Shown piece after piece: positions 39,314 to 51,525 of a DNA stretch of 64,000 nucleotides (its first letter is position 1; the number at the start of each line of letters is the position of its first letter). The translations under genes and the position numbers were made by a program. The stretch covers positions 89,084-153,083 of the forward strand of contig CAVYMC010000005.1 of the NCBI GenBank assembly GCA_963769535.1, in the 5' to 3' direction. The notes under the pieces are model-generated. The model searched no databases and was not told the origin of the DNA. It saw only the letters and a program-made list of their open reading frames with translations. The stretch comes from an uncultured Chloroflexia bacterium. GTDB taxonomy: Bacteria; Chloroflexota; Ktedonobacteria; Ktedonobacterales; Ktedonobacteraceae.

Positions 39314-41840
39314 TTATCCTTCCTCGTGCAGCAAGGGTGCCTGGCCGCGTTTCTTGAGTTCTTCAACCAGTTGCTCTCCACCCTGCTTTCTGAGAAGCAT
39401 GAGGGTAGGATGAATATTTTGGATGATCTGTTTTTCGATTGAGGTGGTCAGGGCCAGCTCGCGCATCACCAGCCCATCCGCGACCTCGAGCAGCGTGGCG
39501 TCTGTATACAAACGGACACGCCCATAATTCGCCAGGCGTTTCTCAAGCTGACGCAGCAGGCGCGCCAGCGCATCTTGTCCAGGCTTCCCCATGCCCTCCA
39601 ACTCTGTAGCCCGGCGCAGTAACTCGAGCAACGGGGCGAAGGATTCCCCTCGATTCAAAGCCTCGCTCAACGATGATGGCGTTAATCGATAACAGAGCCG
39701 CCCGGCGCGCACCCCAGGCGGCTGAGCAAAGCGTTCTACCAGTTGAATGGCCGACCAATTTTCGAAAGAGGACAACAATAACAACTCATCCTGTTCAGAT
39801 ACCTCAATATGCTCGGGGGCAGCGCTCATGAAAGGCGCGCTCGCCATCACGGTATCGATGGATGCATCGTGTACAGGCGCGGTATTCGCCGGGGCAATGT
39901 GTGTAGTTGCAATAGCCTGGGCTTCTACAGGTTCGCCTTTCAAGAGTAACTCGATCATTGGTGTGAGGCGAAATGCTTGCAAACGTCCATCTTCTTTGAA
40001 GGCGAGATCACTGATACCCCACCAGTGCAGCGGGCCTTGCAGGAGTTGCGCGAGATAGCGTCCCTCGGCTCGTTGCCAGTCATTCCACTGGGCAGGCTGC
40101 AAAGGTCGTCCCTCCTCCTGTTCGATCCACCAGTGGGGCGTAGGGAAAGCGCGTTGGCGATGCTGCAAAAAGGTCGGATTCAAGCGATAGACCAGGCGGG
40201 CGAAGGCGGTGAAATCGATCCATTGCTGCGTGGGAGCCTGCGCAAGTAATGTGAGAAGCGTCTGCCGGGCCGCCTTGTTCTCTGCTTCCAGTTCGCCCGC
40301 GCGTAGTACGGGCGTGTTCATAAGGGTAGCGCGGCAACGCAACAGTAAACCTTCTTCCCGCAGGTCAAATATCTCTCTATAGCTGGATTGGCGCTGCCAG
40401 TGCGTAAAGAGTTCAAAAAGTACTTCGGAACGCGACATGCCGAGCAGCAGCCCGGTGGCATTGGGCAACATGCGCAGCACAGAGGTACCGGTTGAATTCG
40501 CTTCGTTCTCAATATAAAGAATGTCCGACAGGCGCAGCACCAGGTAAGCAAAACGTAAGAAAGCGGGGGGGAGTGGAATCAGCGCCTGCAACCGCTCCAG
40601 CAGCGACGCCGGGGGCAGTCCGGCAGGCGCGGGCAAAGCCGTGGAGCCGTCGCTGGACTGCGCATTCACAGCGCGCGCGAGGGGATTGCCCGTATCGCTC
40701 CTGCCACCACGCTCTGTGCGCCTGTCATCGCGCTCCACGAGGTAGCCATCGAGGGCGCGCGCGACCAGCAATAGATCCGGCAGCAACTGAAATGGCTCAG
40801 CGTATTCTATCGTAGAAGGCGCGTCCTGGCCCTCAATGTCAAAAGTCGTTGTCGGTAGCGCAATATGCAAAGCGGCTCGCACCTCCGGCGGTACGTACCA
40901 GTTGATGTCGAGCAGCGACGAGTTTAAGGAACTGCGTAGCTGGAAAGACATGTTCGTATTGGCGCGGAGCAACAGGACTTTCCCTTGCAATGTGACGAGC
41001 ATCTGTTGCAACTTTTCGGGCTTGCCAAGCGAGAACCGTTCAAAAAGGCCGCGCAGCTCTTCATCGTTCATATGACCGCCGGCCAGTGTGAGGGTGGCTA
41101 AGAACTGGCGCTGCGCTTTTTCCAGTGTCCCCACGACGCGCCTGACGGCTTCGGGCTGCCGCAGCTTATCCATGATGGCCTCGACCAGTTCAGCTTTGCC
41201 AGAGCCAGCGTTGACACTATCATATTCGCGCGCCATAGCCCGCAAATCTCCTAACGCAAGTTGCATGAGGGTATCGGCAGTATTTAGCGCGGGGACGGAG
41301 CCAGACATATGCAACGGAGAACTGGAATGTAACGGGCTAACCAGGCGCGCTGGTTTATAACTCATATCAGCAGACGTACTCGCTTCATTTACGCTTTCCG
41401 GCACAGGCGAGGATGGAATAACGTCAATAGGAGGAGCGAAGGTAAATGGATGAGCAAGCCACTGGTAAAGCAATGCGGCTGCATGAGCGCATATAGGAGC
41501 CGAAGCTCCGTTCATCATGGGACAGGTACAATGGACATCCCACGTTTGCGGGTCATGTACGTCAACACTGACAGTATAGCGATCAAGCGAGTAGTTTTCC
41601 AATGCTTTTGCGGCATTTGTCGCTGTTACGCCTCCCTTAAAGGCCAGATTCGAGAGGTCAACCACACCAGAGAGCCGCGCTCCCTGGCGTTTCGTTGAAT
41701 GGACAGACTCCTGAACGGCAATAGTCTTGACCCTGTGACGCTATCGCCAGCCCTGCCCGGCTGATAATATCAGCCTCACGCAGGCGCTGCAAGACGCCAG
41801 GCGCAACATCATACATCTCTCTCAGCCCATAAATACGCAT
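39314..41840 (-). CDS. SWIM zinc-finger protein with SAP/Rho_N-like segment and Helicase_C_3-like C-terminus (frameshift ~41700 as sequenced)
   Basis: SWIM 'CTCPMMNGASAPICAHAAALLYQW', 'LRAMAREYDSVNAGSGKAELVEAIMDKL', and C-terminus 'YRLTPSSLSEALNRGESFAPLLELLRR...YGRVRLYTDATLLEV'. The N-terminal part lies in ORF 41658..41870 ('LREADIISRAGLAIASQGQDYCRSG'). Confidence 0.7.
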
Positions 41841-42055: not shown

Positions 42056-42298
42056 ATCCCGACCGTCCTGATGAATTTTGTCGACCGAATGGGGGAATGA
42101 TGCGAAAGGGACGCAAGCATCCCGACCGTCCTGATGAATTTTGTCGACCGAATGGGGGAATGGAGATGCCCCGGCGTCCTGATGAATATTCACGACCAAA
42201 ACCGGTAATGGGGGAAAGGGGTCGTCTTCTGTAGGGACAAGGGGCGGGGCAGTACGCATTGCTGCATTCGGTTGTCAAAGTTCATTAGGACGGAGGCA
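42056..42298. repeat. family C/D repeat cluster (two perfect 44-nt direct copies, one degenerate copy, one inverted copy)
   Basis: 'atcccgaccgtcctgatgaattttgtcgaccgaatgggggaatg' at 42056-42099 and 42119-42162, a degenerate copy at ~42167-42218, 'gtagggacaaggggcgggg' at 42231-42249, and an inverted unit at 42259-42296. Confidence 0.85.
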
Positions 42299-42315
42299 AC
42301 CGTGAAGGTTGTTGT

Positions 42316-45016: not shown

Positions 45017-45673
45017 CTAGAAAATATCCATGTCACCCATCGACATCGGCGCTATAAAGTCAAAGTTGCCTGCGCCCGCAGTTTTCTCCAGTTGTCGGAG
45101 GATACGGGCAATGTTGTCATTGGGACCTGCAATAAAAAAAGGCTTTCCATCCCTGCCAAAAGTTATCTTGTACGACTCCTCCAGTTCACCACGCGGTTCC
45201 AGTATATACTGGTTTAGGGCGAAGTCTCTTTCAGGCTGGAAGCCGAACTGCTCCGCGTATTCGATCGAGGCATAAATCATCTGGTGCGCAAGCTCGACGG
45301 GACAATCCTTCGCCTTTGAGCCACGGAAAACCCTGTCACGGATTTCACGCCGATAGCTAGCCAGGGGAACACCTGCATGGGCAAGCGTATTTTTGAGTCC
45401 CAGGCAGAGCTTATCCACAAGATAGAAGCCAAAACAAATATCACCATCGGGTTGTTTGCGGGCTACAAGGATTTCCACAAGCCCTGGCTGCTCTTTTTCC
45501 CAGTCACTGCTGATGCGGCATTCTAAAATAGGATATTCGCGAGCGCGACGAATGATACTCTGCTCCGAAAACGCTGTCAATGTCTGTTGTGGCGTTTTGT
45601 GTTGCGAAGCGACTTTTTGCTTGCTGCGCTTTTTCATCAGCGCTTTCTGGTGTTTTTGTTCATCGCGTGGCAT
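45017..45673 (-). CDS. hypothetical protein (218 aa), last gene of the type VII-like cluster
   Basis: Start 'MPRDEQKH' is preceded by AGGAGG. It has a basic N-terminus and then a globular region. I recognise no family. Confidence 0.5.
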   Translation of the reverse strand: MPRDEQKHQKALMKKRSKQKVASQHKTPQQTLTAFSEQSIIRRAREYPILECRISSDWEKEQPGLVEILVARKQPDGDICFGFYLVDKLCLGLKNTLAHAGVPLASYRREIRDRVFRGSKAKDCPVELAHQMIYASIEYAEQFGFQPERDFALNQYILEPRGELEESYKITFGRDGKPFFIAGPNDNIARILRQLEKTAGAGNFDFIAPMSMGDMDIF

Positions 45674-45717
45674 GTGTATCTTCCTCCTACGGAATATCAC
45701 CGTATATGCTCTGGATA

Positions 45718-45939
45718 TTAGTCGTAGATATCATCGTGATTTACCTGTGAAGGACCCTCAAACGTCCCAACCAAATCAGCGAAAGGGTCTTGCGTCTCCA
45801 TAATACCTTCTCTCATGAGAAATTGCTCCAACGCTTTGCGTAAGATAGCAGATTCGGATGTTTTCTGCTCACGAGCAAGGCGTTTTACTGCTCTATCCTG
45901 TGCAGGGGTGATGTAGAACTGTTTGCGAACCAATTCCAT
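45718..45939 (-). CDS. ribbon-helix-helix (CopG/VapB-like) protein
   Basis: 'VRKQFYITPAQDRAVKRLAREQKTSESAILRKALEQFL' is a typical RHH antitoxin/repressor N-terminus. No PIN or other toxin follows. Confidence 0.7.
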   Translation of the reverse strand: MELVRKQFYITPAQDRAVKRLAREQKTSESAILRKALEQFLMREGIMETQDPFADLVGTFEGPSQVNHDDIYD

Positions 45940-46026
45940 AAATTTGTACCTCTGAGAAGGGACTATACAACATCATAGAGGCACACACAATATATTTCCT
46001 ATGAAAGTCTAGTATTTACTGTCTTT

Positions 46027-46779
46027 TCACATGGATTCCGGCCCTGCATGAGAAGGTCCTTCGTATCGTTCTTTGCGCTCGCCTGGACTACCTTCAGATG
46101 ACTCGGTCTCGCTGCCTGATCTATTTGGGCTTCCTCCTGGACCTCTGTTTGGTCCTGATTCAGGGTTTGTTTCAGTAACCCCATCCGTTGTAGGAAGCCC
46201 TGTTGCTGGACTTGTTCCCTGCGCTGGGATTCCAAGAGAACCAGCACTTATAAAAGCGAGCGATATATCGGAACCAGTTATAGGGGAAAAAGTACCGAGG
46301 CTCTCCGACATATAAGACTCTAAAATCGCCACGCTGTTGCTTAGAAGCTGCGCTCCTTTGAGTAAATCATTATCCAGAACCTGAACCAGTTGCCGGGCCT
46401 GGCGCTGGTAGCTGACAATGGCTTCTTCAATCATTTTTATGTATTGCTGAACAATTCGCAGTTCCTGCTCTGCTTCTTCAACTCGACGCTTTGCTCGCAT
46501 GACCGCAGCTTCTAGCGGGCTGCAATCGGCATAGCCAGCGCTGGCTGCAGCCAACATCAGACAGCCCGCTAAGGCTGTTTCTGCCTCTTCCAGTTGCCGC
46601 CGTCGTCGCTTCAATTCGCTTTGCCAGTACGCCAATCGCTCTTGCAGCCAGGCCCGCGCGCGGTTAATTTCAGCATCAGCAGTCTCTAAGGAGCCTCGCG
46701 CATCGCTCTTGAAACGCATAAGCGCTGCCTTTAATTCTTCCAGTACCGCAATTGAGCGCACATTCGCGGATGAACTCAT
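46027..46779 (-). CDS. coiled-coil protein with Gly/Ser/Pro/Glu-rich disordered C-terminus (possible secretion substrate)
   Basis: Long helical N-terminal half ('LEELKAALMRFKSDARGSLETADAEINRARAWLQERLAYWQSEL'), then the tail 'GTSPATGLPTTDGVTETNPESGPNRGPGGSPNRSGSETESSEGSPGERKE'. Confidence 0.55.
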   Translation of the reverse strand: MSSSANVRSIAVLEELKAALMRFKSDARGSLETADAEINRARAWLQERLAYWQSELKRRRRQLEEAETALAGCLMLAAASAGYADCSPLEAAVMRAKRRVEEAEQELRIVQQYIKMIEEAIVSYQRQARQLVQVLDNDLLKGAQLLSNSVAILESYMSESLGTFSPITGSDISLAFISAGSLGIPAQGTSPATGLPTTDGVTETNPESGPNRGPGGSPNRSGSETESSEGSPGERKERYEGPSHAGPESM

Positions 46780-46789
46780 AGCTTTATTC

Positions 46790-47062
46790 TCATCGTTGAT
46801 TTAGATAATCACGCGCCTTTTGCGCTTTTCTCTTGAGGAATGGAATATGATCATCAGCAACACGTATAAACTGATGCAAGACGCGCATGGTTTGCTGAAA
46901 CTCTTGCGCGAACTTCACCTGCTCCTGGTCACGCCACGTATCACCCAGAGCATTAAATTGTCCCTGTAGACGAGACATGCTATCACGCATTTGAGCATTG
47001 AACTGACCAAGATTCTGAGCAAATCGATCCAGTTCTTCTGGATTAACAACCGCCTGGGGCAT
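46790..47062 (-). CDS. WXG100-like small helical-hairpin protein (90 aa)
   Basis: Two predicted helices joined by 'LGDTWRDQEQ'. RBS AAGGAGAGG. Size and position beside the FtsK-like ATPase fit this call. Confidence 0.55.
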   Translation of the reverse strand: MPQAVVNPEELDRFAQNLGQFNAQMRDSMSRLQGQFNALGDTWRDQEQVKFAQEFQQTMRVLHQFIRVADDHIPFLKRKAQKARDYLNQR

Positions 47063-47109
47063 GTGAAACCTCTCCTTCGTGTTCAGTAAACAACAGTTGA
47101 ATAGATAGG

Positions 47110-50100
47110 CTACTTCTTTCGTCGAATATCCGTAGCAGCTTGTTCTAACCATGTCTTCGCCGGCAAACCATAGGGACGAAATTTTTCAACCTGCCCGGTC
47201 TCTTCGTTTAACAGAAGCGCGCGATACGGGCCAAGTTTGTTCGCGGCAGGCAAATCTACGAGGTGCAAGGAGTCTTCCTGAGACATCTGAAAAACAATGC
47301 GCAACTCAAATTCACGCAGCAGCCCACGCTCAAGCGTGCGATTCAAGTTATTGAGTGTATCACACCATACCAACGTATGGATGCCTGATTCTGGCCCCTC
47401 GCGAAGAATCGTGGAAAACTGTTTGGCGGGACTGAGCGCCTTCGGCTCATCACTGCCAAAAGATGAGTAGCTGAAGTCTTCATCTGGACGCAGGTCACGC
47501 GCGCGCTGTAATCCATAGATGAAAAGGTAGACAGGCGATTTCTTCGCCCCGCCCCCGCCGTCTGCCTCTATACGATCCTGTAATTCATCTGCTATCTCAG
47601 TCATGACCGGAGGCAGCCCACGGCGATTGACGACCTTCACATCATGTGGCAAAATTTGCCCCACATTAGCGAGGAGGTCTGCATAGGTCGCATCCGAGGG
47701 CGTAAAGTCTATCACATAGAAACGAGCCGTGCCGGGAGCATGTTGAGCCGTTAAGCTGAGTAGCGATGTTACCAGCATACCTAACCCGGCTTCCTCCTGT
47801 TGGCCCACGATGAGCAGGTTGCAGCCCGCCTGCGCGCGAATTTGCAGATCCGTTGGCTCTTTGATGGCAATTGGATCACCTACCCAGGCTTGAACAGCTT
47901 TTTGTGGTACGATCCAGCCAGGATTCCTCAACATATCTCTAAGCAAGGCATTTTCCGCCGGATCAGCGTTTTTGCTGCCGTCGAAAATAACCTGTTTCCA
48001 TGCCACTTCATAGCGATGGTGCCGCGAAAACTCTTGAATATGATCGAGATATGTATCAAGCTCTTCATCCGAAAGCCAGCTACATTGGAAGGGGTTGTTC
48101 CCCTCGACCAGACCATTCGCGGCATTATAAATAGCCTCGCCCGGACGCGCAAGCAAGCGAGCCGCGGGATTATCGTCGCTCAATACCAGGCGCGAGTCCG
48201 ATTCTTCGCATTGCAAAGCGATACGTACAGCCATTTGACCAATGGTAGCGCGCGCCAAAGTGTATGCTCCAGCCAGCGTCTGCGAACCAAGCATCACATG
48301 CATACCAAACGCTCGCCCCTGGCGCACAAGTCGATCTAAAAGGAGCGTAGCCTCCTGAGCTACTTTATCATCCTGTGTGAAGAACTCCTGGAACTCGTCT
48401 ACCAGCAGGAGGATGCGCGGCATCCGCACACCCGGCTGGGAACCGCGATACTGCGCAATATCCTGCACGCCGGCTTTGCTAAAGATGTTCTTTCTGCGCT
48501 CCAGTTCAACATCCAGCCGCTGCAACACGCTCAGACCAAACTCGCGTTCGCTCTGAATAGCCACGACGCGAGCATGGGGCAGCGCGCGCGTGGCATAAGG
48601 CGTGAAACCGACCGTTTTGAAGTCCACCAGATACAGTTCAAGCTCATCGGGACTATAGAAGAGAGCCAGATTTGTGATGAGTAGATGCAGCAGAGTAGTC
48701 TTGCCCGATCCAGTTTTACCAACCACCAGAGCATGTTGAGCAGTTCCTTTGCCCAGGTCTAAATACTGTAGTTTTGTAGCGCCAGCGCGCCCCAGCGGAA
48801 CTTTAAGTCCTTCGCGCGTACTCCCTGTCCACCATTCTTCGCGAGGCGGCGCGATGCGCTCAAATGGAACTTTCACTCCACTGGCATCCCTGGCACCCTC
48901 ACCAATCTTTTGCAAAAGCTGATTGAAGAGTTCTAATGGCGGCGGCGTATCCAGCGTTAGCTGGCACTTCTCAATATCCTTATTGCTCTCGTTGGCTGCG
49001 GCTTTCCAGACAAAACGTTGCTCTTCCCAGGCAATCACCGTCGAGACCCGTTCCAGGTCAGCAGGGTTAAAGCTATATGGGGGAGCCTGTTCAATATCCC
49101 ACATCACAATAGTAGAGACACCACACTTCGGGCCATTGGTGGCTATCTCAACCAGCCGAGTAGCAGCTTCCTGGCTAAATTTGACCGGGAAGCCAATCAC
49201 CACCAGGATACGGTACGGCTCGGCAACCTCACCTGCTTGCTTATTGTACTCTTCAATCGTCTTGTACTGTCCGCGCAAATATTTCTGGATAATCACGCTC
49301 ATCTGTTCAGACAGGTTTGCCAGCCGCTGATCAATATCCCTCGTCTCACTCCAGGCTTTGCTGCCAACCAGGTCATTATTATAGTCAGTCAGCATCATAA
49401 ACTGTGAGACGTTCTGTCCAATCCCTACAGGATCAATCAGGGTAAACTCGACCTTCCCAGGCGGCTGAGTCGCCAGCAAACGCAACATCAGCGATTGAAT
49501 AGCAGCGATGGCTGTACTTTTTGCCGCGCCACTTGCCTTGAAGAGGATGTTTTTGTCTCCGGCACTACTGACGAAGGCGGGTATAGTCAGTAATTCCTGA
49601 CCATTCTTGATACTCAAAGTCCCAATTCGAACTGCATAAGAGTTTGTACTCGATGGTTGCCATTCATACCACGCAGCTTCAGTCCAATCAGTACGTAAGG
49701 AACCTGCTTCATGTATAAAAGCCTGAATATCGTAACCGAGTTCGTTTAATTTCTGTTTTGATTTCAGATTAAGTTGTCTTATGAATTCTGAATGAACTTT
49801 ATTAATGTCGTTAATTTTTGTTTGATATCTTCGATCTATTTGCTCTACTTTAACTTTATATTCAATATCTAATTGTTTGATATCTCTTCTATATTGTTCT
49901 TGATAACTGACTATCAGAGTCTGGCGTAAATTCTCTACGAAAGATATATAATACACTATTTTAGAATAATCCTTCATTAAATTTTGGGCTTTCATTTTTT
50001 TATTCGTAAGCTGAATAAAAAATATCAGACCGGAAATTGCGAATACTAATAACCCTGATAAAATTAAGGCAATTATCTGCGAGGTGGTATCAGTGCTTAA

Positions 50101-50637
50101 AATGATCCCAGAACTTGCTAATATAGATAATAGCACTAATGAAATAAGAGTTCCTGTTCCTAATGTTATAGAAGCGTAGCATCCCGGACGAGGCTTTATA
50201 CTTACTAATGTTGAATTCACTCGCTTACTTGCCTCTTCTATAGCGGATTGATACACTAATATTTGCTCAACAAGACTGTTACTATTCGGAATAGCTAGTG
50301 AATTTGGAGTTTCCCTAACTAATTTATCTTGCCACTTAGTTGTGCTAAAATAACTGTTGAGACCATCCCGAATAGATTTTATCCAATTATAAATATAATT
50401 CAAAGAACTATCGTGCTGATATTTTGTACTATTCCAATTTCGTTCAACTTTCTCTTTGTCGCTTTGCCATTTTGATTCTGCAGTTTCTTTGTCGCTTTGC
50501 CATTTTGATTCTGCAGTTTCTTTGTCATGTTTGAAACGAGCTTCGGCTTCAGACCTTTCTAGCTCTAAGTCATGAATGAAACTGTATGAACGCTTAATGA
50601 CCTCGCGTTGTCGTTGCATTAAATTCGTTTTTGTCAT
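47110..50637 (-). CDS. FtsK/SpoIIIE-family membrane ATPase, EssC/EccC-like (three tandem P-loop modules, only the middle one canonical)
   Basis: N-terminal coiled coil, 2 TM segments, degenerate 'FKASGAAKST', canonical 'VVGKTGSGKTTLLH' + 'ILLLVDEFQEF', and degenerate 'NLLIVGQQEEAGLGM'. Confidence 0.85.
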   Translation of the reverse strand: MTKTNLMQRQREVIKRSYSFIHDLELERSEAEARFKHDKETAESKWQSDKETAESKWQSDKEKVERNWNSTKYQHDSSLNYIYNWIKSIRDGLNSYFSTTKWQDKLVRETPNSLAIPNSNSLVEQILVYQSAIEEASKRVNSTLVSIKPRPGCYASITLGTGTLISLVLLSILASSGIILSTDTTSQIIALILSGLLVFAISGLIFFIQLTNKKMKAQNLMKDYSKIVYYISFVENLRQTLIVSYQEQYRRDIKQLDIEYKVKVEQIDRRYQTKINDINKVHSEFIRQLNLKSKQKLNELGYDIQAFIHEAGSLRTDWTEAAWYEWQPSSTNSYAVRIGTLSIKNGQELLTIPAFVSSAGDKNILFKASGAAKSTAIAAIQSLMLRLLATQPPGKVEFTLIDPVGIGQNVSQFMMLTDYNNDLVGSKAWSETRDIDQRLANLSEQMSVIIQKYLRGQYKTIEEYNKQAGEVAEPYRILVVIGFPVKFSQEAATRLVEIATNGPKCGVSTIVMWDIEQAPPYSFNPADLERVSTVIAWEEQRFVWKAAANESNKDIEKCQLTLDTPPPLELFNQLLQKIGEGARDASGVKVPFERIAPPREEWWTGSTREGLKVPLGRAGATKLQYLDLGKGTAQHALVVGKTGSGKTTLLHLLITNLALFYSPDELELYLVDFKTVGFTPYATRALPHARVVAIQSEREFGLSVLQRLDVELERRKNIFSKAGVQDIAQYRGSQPGVRMPRILLLVDEFQEFFTQDDKVAQEATLLLDRLVRQGRAFGMHVMLGSQTLAGAYTLARATIGQMAVRIALQCEESDSRLVLSDDNPAARLLARPGEAIYNAANGLVEGNNPFQCSWLSDEELDTYLDHIQEFSRHHRYEVAWKQVIFDGSKNADPAENALLRDMLRNPGWIVPQKAVQAWVGDPIAIKEPTDLQIRAQAGCNLLIVGQQEEAGLGMLVTSLLSLTAQHAPGTARFYVIDFTPSDATYADLLANVGQILPHDVKVVNRRGLPPVMTEIADELQDRIEADGGGGAKKSPVYLFIYGLQRARDLRPDEDFSYSSFGSDEPKALSPAKQFSTILREGPESGIHTLVWCDTLNNLNRTLERGLLREFELRIVFQMSQEDSLHLVDLPAANKLGPYRALLLNEETGQVEKFRPYGLPAKTWLEQAATDIRRKK
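50455..50520 (-). repeat. perfect 33-nt tandem duplication inside the ATPase N-terminus
   Basis: 'tttgtcgctttgccattttgattctgcagtttc' x2 (50455-50487, 50488-50520), encoding 'KETAESKWQSD' twice. Confidence 0.95.
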
Positions 50638-50719
50638 CTTACATTTCCTAATACTGGAAATAAGTGAATATTTCGAGTTCCTCCACGAATGAAATGTCTT
50701 ATAGATGTTTCATTCTTTT

Positions 50720-50935
50720 TTATCGTACCCTGCGTCGCGCTTCCGCAATCACCTGTGCCAGTCTCTGCATCTCTTTGAGCGTTAATTGTGTCTGGACCTC
50801 AAACAATGCCAGATAATCTTTTTCAAAGCTCCGGCTGACGGGATCATTCCATAAAGGTTTTTTGTCTTCCCAACTTTGATGTAGTACCCTACCGGCGGTA
50901 TTTAGCTGTTCCATCGATGCATCTAAGTCTGCCAT
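50720..50935 (-). CDS. WXG100-like small helical protein (71 aa), first gene of the cluster
   Basis: 'LHQSWEDKKPLWNDP' turn between two helices, with a strong RBS AGGAGGAAG. Confidence 0.5.
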   Translation of the reverse strand: MADLDASMEQLNTAGRVLHQSWEDKKPLWNDPVSRSFEKDYLALFEVQTQLTLKEMQRLAQVIAEARRRVR

Positions 50936-50971
50936 TGCTTCCTCCTAAGAACAAGTATCAAGACCATTGTG

Positions 50972-50999
50972 TTATTCTCTAGCGATAGCTACAGAATAA
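50972..50999. promoter_or_regulatory. 28-bp imperfect palindrome upstream of the type VII-like operon (candidate operator)
   Basis: ttattct-c-tagc-gata-gcta-c-agaataa. The 7-bp outer and 4-bp inner arms are complementary. It lies 37-64 nt upstream of the first start codon. Confidence 0.35.
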
Positions 51000-51167
51000 C
51001 ATATTTATCCGCAATTTCAAGAGCTATTGCAGCGAAAATGAAAGCAATAGTCAAAGATGTTTTGATAGAAATAGATGTAACTAACAATCAAGCGTAGCAT
51101 ATGCCAGACGCTCATGAATTGCGACACCTGGAAATCTTTGGTCGCGAGGGTATTCCAGAGGTCGCTG

Positions 51168-51525
51168 CATTCTAATGAATTTTGACGACCGAAGAGAGCA
51201 AGGACAGGAAATGTTTGCCCCCGTCCTGATAAACTTTGACAACCGAATGCAGTAATGCGCATGGCCCCGTCCTGTAGGGACAAGGGGTGGATGCGGGGGC
51301 CCTGTGCTTGTCCTGGTGGCAACGCGATTCGCCCGGGTTCCGTGAGGCATGAGGGTCGCACTCCAACGAGGACAAGCACAGGGCCCCCGCATCCACTCCA
51401 CCCCGCCCCTTGTCCCTACAGAAGGGAACGCCTTCCTCCCCATTCCCGATTCGGTTGTCAAATATCATCAGGATGTCGGGGTTTCTTCATTTCCCCATTC
51501 GGTCGTTACACTTCATAAGGGATGG
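51168..51525. repeat. family C/D composite palindrome (two forward units, 40-bp-arm central hairpin, two reverse units)
   Basis: Units at 51168-51198 and 51221-51252, central arms at 51274-51313 / 51370-51419 ('gtagggacaaggggtggatgcgggggccctgtgcttgtcc'), and reverse units at 51438-51481 and 51493-51525. Confidence 0.85.

Follow-up and report, generated by a model that had tools for sequence, protein, structure and literature searches.

Can protein export of the type VII kind be carried by a cluster as small as the one at 45017-50935 of the DNA analysed here, a 64,000-nucleotide stretch (the window) of contig CAVYMC010000005.1 from an uncultured member of the Ktedonobacteraceae, phylum Chloroflexota? 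Type VII secretion is regarded as a trait of Actinomycetota and Bacillota, and to our knowledge every type VII secretion system (T7SS) studied needs several membrane partners besides its ATPase. In this cluster, the two universal T7SS parts, a membrane ATPase of the EccC/EssC type and a WXG100 protein, travel with only two small helical proteins. These four genes stay together across phyla, and no other conserved partner accompanies them. On balance, and arguing by analogy with characterised systems, we consider that the locus is probably a minimal type VII-like protein export module of four conserved genes.

The cluster consists of six open reading frames (ORFs) on the minus strand, co-directional and closely spaced, as had been described in a first-pass annotation made by a model from the letters and translations alone. 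The intergenic gaps measure 10-87 bp. In order of transcription they encode proteins of 71 amino acids (aa), 1175 aa (the ATPase), 90 aa, 250 aa, 73 aa and 218 aa. We refer to the long hairpin of the 250-aa protein as N160 and to the 71-aa hairpin as S71, and all coordinates of the cluster are those of the window. The four genes of the conserved unit are the following.

50720..50935, minus strand: S71, small helical hairpin of 71 aa, core component, probably a divergent, truncated WXG100-like protein
47110-50637, minus strand: ATPase, 1175 aa, with three FtsK-like modules (ORF list, Pfam)
46790..47062, minus strand: WXG100 protein, 90 aa, EsxA-like, of the HP0062 type (Pfam, PDB matches)
46027-46779, minus strand: 250-aa protein, coiled-coil hairpin followed by a disordered tail (AlphaFold2 model)

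All peptides quoted in the first-pass annotation were found in the translations: both hydrophobic segments of the ATPase, its FKASGAAKST...TLIDPVG, VVGKTGSGKTTLLH, ILLLVDEFQEF and NLLIVGQQEEAGLGM...FYVIDF, and HQSWEDKKPLW and LGDTWRDQEQ of the small proteins. Its reading of the locus proved essentially right: of the three outcomes it had named as refuting, concerning the hairpins and their WXG100 similarity, the grouping of the ATPase and conservation as a unit, none was observed. For the WXG100 gene, the mechanical ORF extends to 47152 (120 aa) and overlaps the ATPase gene; because all homologues are 90-91 aa long, we take the protein as 90 aa. The gap between the ATPase gene and the downstream WXG100 gene is then 47 bp, and the one between the 71-aa gene and the ATPase gene is 82 bp.

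The ATPase and its small hairpin partners

Pfam FtsK_SpoIIIE matched the ATPase with 128.6 bits over three stretches, and neither an FHA nor an Ftsk_gamma (winged helix-turn-helix, wHTH) domain was found in it by Pfam. The lack of a C-terminal gamma domain sets it apart from the FtsK/SpoIIIE DNA translocases. NCBIfam models gave E-values of 7.5e-37 for EccCa, 4.7e-35 for EssC and 5.4e-30 for EccCb versus 1.2e-7 for FtsK, and among structures in the PDB it matched T. curvata EccC (4nh0, 2e-35), EccC5 (2e-29), B. subtilis YukB (1.6e-21) and FtsK (1.2e-9). The matches to the FtsK model and structure were confined to the Walker region of module 2 (E ~1e-7 to 1e-9). Grouping with EccC/EssC or with DNA translocases had been named in the first-pass annotation as a check on its proposal; by these sequence comparisons the protein groups with EccC/EssC, not with the translocases, and we regard it as an EccC/EssC-type membrane ATPase. 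Its parts, from the N-terminus on, are a helical domain, a pair of transmembrane (TM) helices, a linker and three modules, which resemble D0, D1 and D2/D3 in turn:

50158..50637, minus strand: residues 1-160, cytoplasmic helical N-terminal module, with a conserved L-x-Q-R-Q-R-E at its start and no FHA
50005..50157, minus strand: residues ~161-211, two-helix TM hairpin with a 7-residue outer loop, STDTTSQ (hydropathy)
49687..50004, minus strand: residues 212-317, juxtamembrane helical linker (sequence; strong family conservation from W318 on)
48844..49686, minus strand: residues 318-598, module 1, degenerate FtsK-like (KASGAAKS at the Walker A position; Walker B position without D-E)
48004..48843, minus strand: residues 599-878, module 2, the only canonical nucleoside triphosphatase (NTPase) module (Walker A GKTGSGKT, Walker B LLLVDEF; equivalent of EccC/EssC D1)
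47113..48003, minus strand: residues 879-1175, module 3, degenerate FtsK-like, with no GK[ST] and no D-E (EccC D2/D3-like)

The presence of three FtsK-like modules, proposed earlier from motifs, was confirmed by the three Pfam stretches, by scans with single modules and by hhalign. Module 1 alone matched FtsK_SpoIIIE with E 9.2e-5 (22.4 bits) and module 3 alone with E 0.024, and the best stretch of the family lies in module 2 (residues 608-787). When profiles of the modules, built from 109 homologues, were compared by hhalign, module 3 matched module 2 over 200 columns (probability 96.9%, E 2e-10) and module 1 matched module 3 (probability 91%, E 1e-6). Module 2 aligned to D1 of T. curvata EccC 4nh0 (267-506), EccC5 (462-671) and YukB (651-903), and to D1 of EccCa (model positions 413-659 of 673); 17 diverse homologues all keep its residues G643, K646, D747 and E748. 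Module 1, which directly precedes it, stands at the position of the DUF/D0 domain of EccC. A phmmer match of module 3 to residues 867-1046 of EccC5, the D2 region (E 0.003), was also obtained, and by analogy module 3 is a candidate substrate-docking module. The space between the TM hairpin and the C-terminus fits three modules only, not the four (DUF/D0, D1, D2, D3) of every T7SSa-j ATPase. All 150+ family-invariant residues of the ATPase, Walker A and B included, are kept in the window protein.

Absence of FHA domains and presence of two hydrophobic segments had likewise been stated correctly: hydropathy peaks at residues 162-180 (2.22) and 188-206 (2.76), and basic residues stand on both cytoplasmic sides. 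Following the positive-inside rule, the topology would therefore be N-in/C-in, like that of EccC and EssC. TM segments are fused ahead of module 1 in 64 of ~75 evaluable genome loci, and TM-less forms made up ~30 of the 117 homologous ATPases of the first protein search. Just upstream of the TM-less ATPases, one or two genes encode proteins with the L-x-Q-R-Q-R-E helix start and a TM segment. A hidden Markov model (HMM) of the fused N-terminus plus TM segments matched these separate membrane proteins with E 3.5e-17 to 7e-4, and the N-terminal membrane module is therefore separable. Membrane attachment itself is thus constant in the system. A soluble ATPase, for which the TM-less homologues had been taken as an argument against a membrane role, was rejected because homologous membrane proteins are encoded directly upstream.

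Two further observations concern the N-terminus. In some homologous ATPases the helical N-domain is replaced, ahead of the TM segment, by a WD40 beta-propeller (P0019, P0026, P0033, P0035) or a Ser/Thr protein kinase domain (P0029, P0048 and locus L013, 8303-12634), which suggests regulated variants. The window ATPase carries an exact 11-residue tandem duplication, KETAESKWQSD twice, at residues ~37-59 (window ~50460-50530), where homologues have an indel.

The similarity of the 90-aa protein to WXG100 proteins, noted earlier from its Trp-containing turn, proved substantial. Pfam WXG100 (PF06013) matched it with E 1.1e-11 and 45.3 bits (gathering score 27.3), and it aligned end to end with B. 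anthracis EsxB (4j42, 1.3e-10), H. pylori HP0062 (3fx7, 8e-6) and S. aureus EsxA (1e-3). Identity to the window protein amounts to 68-87% in loci L001, L002 and L004 (one of them from Poribacteria), with a median of 52% over 53 loci. The canonical W-x-G turn was not found in either small protein: the WXG100 protein reads T-W-R-D and the 71-aa protein L-W-N-D. HP0062 (PDB 3FX7/2GTS; Pallen 2002) is like the window protein in having W-R-D in place of W-x-G at the bend. Its gene also lies near an FtsK/SpoIIIE gene (PMC3397514). Judged by these alignments, the 90-aa protein truly belongs to the WXG100 family, and within it to the HP0062 type.

The 71-aa protein was described earlier as a second hairpin of this kind; the hairpin prediction stood, and the WXG100 similarity turned out to be weak, though in register. 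AlphaFold2 predicted helices at residues 2-29 and 32-70 with a predicted local distance difference test (pLDDT) of 90.5, W29 ending helix 1. The window protein itself matched no Pfam family, and Foldseek of the model against the PDB found nothing. Across 46 sequences of the S71 family, W29 and D31 never vary and F37 hardly does, and this W-x-D-x5-F spacing is common to S71 and the WXG100 family of the loci. An iterated S71 HMM took in the WXG100 family, possibly by profile drift, and the comparison was redone with non-iterated profiles: hhalign then aligned the two families on W-x-D...F with E 3.7e-4, at a probability of only 36%. The S71 profile matched S. aureus EsxA (2vs0) with E 0.015, in register and with W-x-D over W-x-G, and 9 of the 46 members gave weak Pfam WXG100 matches. 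We assign the 71-aa protein, with moderate confidence, to the WXG100 superfamily as a shortened, divergent member.

The conserved gene set and its variable part

Relatives of the ATPase number more than 1000 in the protein database at E <=1e-10 and were confirmed in at least 597 species-representative genomes, the best 80 of which are mostly Planctomycetota, with Chloroflexota and Lentisphaerae besides. Over the C-terminal 78% of the protein, sequences from Chloroflexota, Planctomycetota and Poribacteria share ~50% identity, and their N-termini are variable; no ATPase match above 54% identity occurred among the matches listed in the species-representative scan. We compared the gene neighbourhoods (±10 kb) of ~85 loci, the best 80 genome loci plus five metagenomic loci, and located the small genes by HMM.

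Among these loci, a WXG100 gene was present in 59, S71 in 64 and N160 in 61, and the full set of WXG100, N160, S71 and ATPase in ~60, usually as a tight operon in the order WXG100, long hairpin, 71 aa, ATPase. The small genes are nearly always on the ATPase strand, in Planctomycetota within ~1 kb of the ATPase gene, and almost all loci with sufficient upstream DNA carry all three. Clustering of all other neighbouring ORFs gave no further family in more than six loci, which bears out the earlier remark that no EccB/D/E, MycP, EssA/EssB/EsaA or YukD-like partner is present. Nor was a conserved mycosin, kinase or protease partner found in these neighbourhoods, the rest of the 64-kb window not having been scanned protein by protein. 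The gene set recurs in dozens of unrelated genomes and is therefore far more than chance. Since the ribbon-helix-helix (RHH) gene occurs only here and the 218-aa gene only in one other locus (L086), the conserved unit consists of four genes; the proposal of a block conserved as a unit thus holds across phyla, for four genes and not for six. In L013 and L069 (Kuenenia), the three small genes are not nearby. Cultured carriers exist, among them Singulisphaera sp. Ch08 (locus L012).

A few distant versions lie on plasmids. On a Helicobacter plasmid, with an ATPase 29.5% identical to that of the window, the series starts with WXG100 (E 2e-19), continues with a helical protein of 340 aa, an immunity protein (SUKH/SMI1-KNR4) and a protein of 77 aa, and closes with the ATPase; the 340-aa protein sits at the position of N160 and ends in a Tox-WHH nuclease domain (PF14414, 1e-11). 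On a Deinococcus plasmid, the ATPase is accompanied by the split membrane protein, by WXG100 and another WXG-like protein, and further by a coiled-coil protein of 326 aa and one that has a 71-aa-like domain.

The 250-aa protein had been described as having a helical N-terminal half and a disordered tail. AlphaFold2 agreed, predicting helices at residues 2-79 and 87-162 (pLDDT >90) and an 85-residue tail with pLDDT <50:

46285..46779, minus strand: residues 1-165, N160, long antiparallel coiled-coil hairpin, proposed LXG-like targeting domain (AlphaFold2)
46030..46284, minus strand: residues 166-250, disordered Gly/Ser/Pro/Glu-rich tail at the variable position of the family (pLDDT <50)

N160 matched no family in Pfam, NCBIfam or the PDB. 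LXG was absent from the window protein (Pfam) and from 35 family members at E up to 1, and when the PDB was searched with a profile of the N160 family, the results were noise (MHC class I and translin-like proteins, for example), with no chain of LXG, Lap or PPE among them. N160 is like LXG proteins in architecture alone, both having a helical domain at the N-terminus, C-termini that are polymorphic and a small helical partner. The domain is N-terminal in all 61 loci that have it. Median identity to the window is 31-32% for N160 and S71, and 50-52% for WXG100 and the ATPase core, so that the two hairpins diverge in step and faster than the other two components.

What follows the hairpin differs between relatives. 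In most Planctomycetota there is nothing, or a short acidic tail, and this is the commonest state of the family. A DnaJ-type zinc finger occupies the tail position in the window's closest relatives (CxxCxGxG, four Cys pairs) and in L001. In L019, L036 and L056 the C-terminal fusion partner of N160 is Imm33-like (PF24719, E 1e-8 to 1e-14), in L002 it is a DUF6782 HExxH metallopeptidase (Pfam), with the same HExxH sequence in L004, and in one N160 copy of L008, a locus with two tandem N160-S71 cassettes that have different C-termini, it is DUF2380. The tail of the window protein recurs in P0136 and P0137, whose N-domains are only 53% identical, and no Cys-rich ORF exists in the other frames; we therefore regard it as an alternative tail, and withdrew the idea of a decayed zinc finger that a MAFFT alignment had raised. 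Pfam did not bear out the ParB-like C-terminus that L006 and L009 seemed by eye to have, and this reading is not used here. The gene after the N160-metallopeptidase fusion (L002 5787-6347, L004 6240-6863) encodes a weakly PsbP-like protein (E ~1e-3, below the cut-off), which could be an immunity protein or an adaptor; PsbP/MOG1-like proteins beside toxin genes of type VI secretion systems have been considered possible adaptors (Zhang et al. 2012, Biol Direct 7:18).

Export and its alternatives

The first-pass annotation knew of no experimental description of this architecture, in agreement with a 2023 review (PMC10765036). The ATPase architecture itself has been noted, in Table 1 footnote 6 of Zhang et al. 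(2012, Biol Direct 7:18), where the class is called 'mobile versions of T7SS'. That class, which includes H. pylori HP0062, combines a three-module YueA-like ATPase with a solo WXG gene. The window locus resembles it in having three FtsK modules of which the middle alone is active, and a single WXG100 gene beside the ATPase gene, a linkage seen in 59 loci. Hosts in Planctomycetes and other phyla outside Bacillota/Actinomycetota, and compact island-like loci, are further likenesses. The footnote differs in being without N160, the S71 partner and the separable membrane module, and Chloroflexi are unlisted there for this ATPase type. Within an incomplete coverage of the literature, we found no description of the N160 family, the S71 family or the split membrane module. 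The class of Zhang et al. has been recognised as a pattern but not characterised as a system, and the locus is an ordinary member of this widespread T7SS-like class, which has been noticed bioinformatically and has had no experimental characterisation.

Among characterised systems, T7SSb of Bacillota (EssC/YukB, EsxA, LXG with Lap) shares a two-TM FtsK-family ATPase with a cytoplasmic N-domain, just one WXG100 gene, a protein whose long helical domain is followed by a polymorphic C-terminus, next to it a small hairpin partner, and, in some relatives, toxin-immunity pairs. In contrast to T7SSb, the ATPase described here has three ATPase-like modules rather than four and a helical N-terminus rather than FHA; EssA, EssB, EsaA and EsaB/YukD are lacking, N160 is not detectably LXG, and the host phyla are others, many of them diderm. 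With T7SSa/ESX of Actinomycetota the locus has in common that the ATPase best matches EccC, that its active module is D1 with a degenerate module preceding it at the DUF/D0 position, and that FHA is absent; the substrates there are helical hairpins, and the short hairpin next to a longer helical protein recalls PE/PPE. It differs from T7SSa/ESX in lacking EccB, EccD, EccE and MycP, in having one module fewer and a single WXG100 protein instead of an EsxA/EsxB pair, and in that no YxxxD/E motif was identified. The T7SSa-j catalogue covers Bacillota/Actinomycetota only, with four NTPase domains (Garrett et al. 2024, microLife, PMC11217815), and T7SSc-j have five or more core components, usually with a ubiquitin-like TsxB among them, several being without FHA (PMC11217815). 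Both universal parts, WXG100 and the ATPase of EccC/EssC type, are common to our locus and T7SSc-j; the locus departs from the latter in its three NTPase modules and its lack of a ubiquitin-like protein.

Building on these likenesses, we propose that the ATPase would form a hexamer whose TM hairpins make or gate a channel. Module 2 would hydrolyse ATP, and the degenerate modules may regulate it and dock substrates. N160 would act as a targeting domain of the LXG, PPE or Esp type and pair with S71, a putative Lap- or PE-like partner. The result, perhaps with the dimer of WXG100 included, would be a helical bundle. This bundle would be exported across the cytoplasmic membrane, and any domain fused C-terminally to N160 would be carried along. 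The basis of the analogy is the tripartite LXG-Lap targeting complexes of T7SSb and its need for EsxA in toxin export, as described in PMC10801868 and PMC13355648. The variable N160 C-termini and the WHH/SUKH pair of the Helicobacter plasmid point to LXG-like effector export. The tandem cassettes of L008 and the shared, faster divergence of N160 and S71 likewise suit a substrate-like N160. Within the window, the cargo position holds a disordered acidic tail only, and the local role is therefore not obviously toxic.

A stronger version of this proposal is that the module is a self-sufficient exporter of ancestral grade, with the ATPase hexamer as sole membrane component, its 12 TM helices as the channel, WXG100 as a structural co-factor and not cargo, and N160 plus S71, a hairpin pair without a name so far, as a universal targeting device. 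We put this forward tentatively, as a possibility on which we would not rely. If true, T7-type secretion would be present in diderm bacteria by the hundreds, from Planctomycetota and Chloroflexota to Deinococcota and Campylobacterota, and the module would define the minimal T7SS.

Several observations weigh against export. The ATPase is far under the NCBIfam equivalog cut-offs (EccC 127 versus 509 bits, EssC 121 versus 778 bits) and is therefore not an orthologue of EccC or EssC. No EccB/D/E, EssA/B, EsaA or YukD-like partner is conserved in the neighbourhoods, and the 12 TM helices of a hexamer may be too few for a channel. The loci, many of whose hosts are diderm, have no outer-membrane component linked to them. 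Asp stands in place of the glycine of W-x-G. LXG (PF04740), PPE and Esp were not detected for N160 by Pfam or the PDB profile search, and Foldseek of the 250-aa model returned generic long hairpins, including the type III secretion stalk YscO, none at E <=0.001. Most Planctomycetota have no cargo domain on N160; the N160 HMM did not match the 340-aa Helicobacter toxin, so that the correspondence between them is positional only. Imm33-like domains are normally immunity modules, and such a domain on N160 would be an odd thing to export. T7SS-like systems outside Gram-positives have also not been functionally confirmed (2023 review, PMC10765036).

Of the alternatives, the one that survives best is that the ATPase is tethered to the membrane and does not export its partners. 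N160 would then be a FliJ/YscO-like stalk or regulator in the ring and the small hairpins adaptors, with a role in sensing, in conflict or in the export of proteins encoded elsewhere. The top Foldseek match of N160 was indeed YscO (4mh6, probability 0.99, E 0.06, template-modelling score 0.56 on the target). Weak profile matches were obtained as well (TIGR02473 E 0.018, Pfam FliJ E 0.17, YscO-like in 2 of 35 members), and at ~165 aa N160 is about the size of FliJ. The WD40 or kinase domains on some ATPases suggest signal input, and Imm33-like is fused to N160 in three loci. However, the FliJ/YscO similarities are all sub-significant, with hairpins of SMC, HlyD and chemoreceptors scoring alike, and PADLOC matched no defence system for the small proteins. 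The polymorphic enzymatic C-termini, the tandem N160-S71 cassettes and the nuclease-immunity pair of Helicobacter fit exported effectors better. We consider a non-exporting stalk unlikely, and retain it because most members of the N160 family are cargo-less.

DNA translocation or conjugation of a mobile element, with the ATPase as an FtsK/TraB-like DNA pump and the small proteins as accessories, is very improbable. It would agree with the membership of the ATPase in the FtsK/SpoIIIE family, with the G+C content of the locus, which is below that of its flanks, with the label 'mobile' given to the class by Zhang et al., with the few distant members on plasmids and with the frequent insertion of toxin-antitoxin-like and HNH genes in the loci. 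Yet FtsK matches the ATPase 25-30 orders of magnitude less well than EccC/EssC do, the ATPase has no gamma/wHTH domain, and the conserved neighbourhood holds no relaxase, integrase or replication genes. Matches occurred in only 5 of 72,556 plasmid records, and no phage record covered >=80% of the query. The locus is flanked by RsmE, PrmA, GNAT and methylmalonyl-CoA mutase genes, the GNAT synteny being kept in the nearest relative, and the obligatory partner is a WXG100 protein.

We give even less credit to a decaying remnant in this genome, with the cargo of N160 lost and a foreign RHH gene inserted: the window tail is a disordered, low-complexity one where the closest relatives have the four-Cys-pair zinc finger, and the RHH gene interrupts the arrangement of L086, but all six ORFs are intact, the Walker motifs and the 150+ invariant ATPase residues are present, the same tail is found in P0136 and P0137 despite N-domains of only 53% identity, and a cargo-less N160 is the commonest family state. 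Anti-phage defence was rejected, as PADLOC gave only generic P-loop matches (SspH, mad8, HerA) for the ATPase and none for the small proteins.

If the preferred reading holds and the module exports protein, it is the simplest T7-type machine available: a model for the minimal translocon, for the roles of degenerate ATPase modules, for the universal requirement for WXG100 and for the reading of helical-bundle signals, and an unexplored route of effector delivery in Planctomycetota and Chloroflexota. If it does not export, the pairing of WXG100 with FtsK has a second function. Its value lies in the class rather than in the single locus.

Accessory genes and setting of the locus

The two remaining genes of the cluster lie outside the conserved module and are passengers or lineage-specific accessories.

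45718..45939, minus strand: 73-aa RHH protein, accessory insertion
45017..45673, minus strand: 218-aa neighbour protein, lineage-specific (start MPRDE at 45673; longest ORF 227 aa, 45017-45700)

The 73-aa protein matched Pfam RHH_1 with E 5.4e-4 and 20.3 bits, against a cut-off of 20.5. Its gene has no homologue in any other locus and is missing from the syntenic closest relative, L086. There, and only there, an 83%-identical orthologue of the 218-aa gene follows the N160 gene directly, and the GNAT synteny is also kept; because the L086 orthologue begins likewise, we placed the start of the 218-aa protein at MPRDE. Its place in the cluster is one that immunity or accessory genes take in other loci. 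The 218-aa protein matched nothing in Pfam, NCBIfam or PADLOC. It belongs to a family without a Pfam model that comprises 2760 representative clusters at E <=0.001, and the domain often forms the N-terminus of 400-700-aa proteins with TPR, SEC-C, PRiA4_ORF3, CcbP or DUF7309.

Small toxin-antitoxin-like or selfish genes are repeatedly lodged within these loci, the lone RHH gene at 45718-45939 being the example of the window. Others are, in L008 (6138-6957), a nucleotidyltransferase/HEPN-like pair recognised by its sequence motif alone, in L004 (7121-7962) HNH together with an RHH-like gene, and on the Helicobacter plasmid (L088 9073-9809) RHH plus PemK/MazF.

The G+C content of the locus is 0.47-0.51, versus 0.56-0.58 in the flanks, which hold housekeeping genes: GNAT acetyltransferase, PrmA and RsmE downstream on the same strand, and methylmalonyl-CoA mutase upstream. 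An Rfam scan of the window gave three tRNAs only, none close to the locus. A 783-aa protein encoded at 39314-41665, unrelated to the locus, has an N-terminal SWIM-like Cys/His motif, CTCPMM...CAHAAALLYQW (by eye), and a weak Helicase_C_3 match (E 4e-6, under the cut-off).

Inside the 82-bp gap between the 71-aa and ATPase genes lies a hairpin with a 13-bp stem, GAATGAAATGTCT TAT AGATGTTTCATTC (50687-50715); read on the coding (minus) strand, the stem has no T-run after it. The hairpin may act in mRNA stability or attenuation and thereby determine how much small protein is made relative to the ATPase. Two clusters of a ~22-44-nt repeat with the core CTGATGAAnTTTGACnACCGAA were found at 42056-42299 and 51160-51521, each made up of direct copies followed by an inverted copy. 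The core occurs 7 times in the 64-kb window, all within these two intergenic regions, where 0.02 copies were expected by chance. In appearance the clusters resemble miniature inverted-repeat transposable elements or repetitive extragenic palindromes (MITE/REP-like), and they bracket a 9-kb stretch with RsmE, PrmA, GNAT and the T7-like locus.

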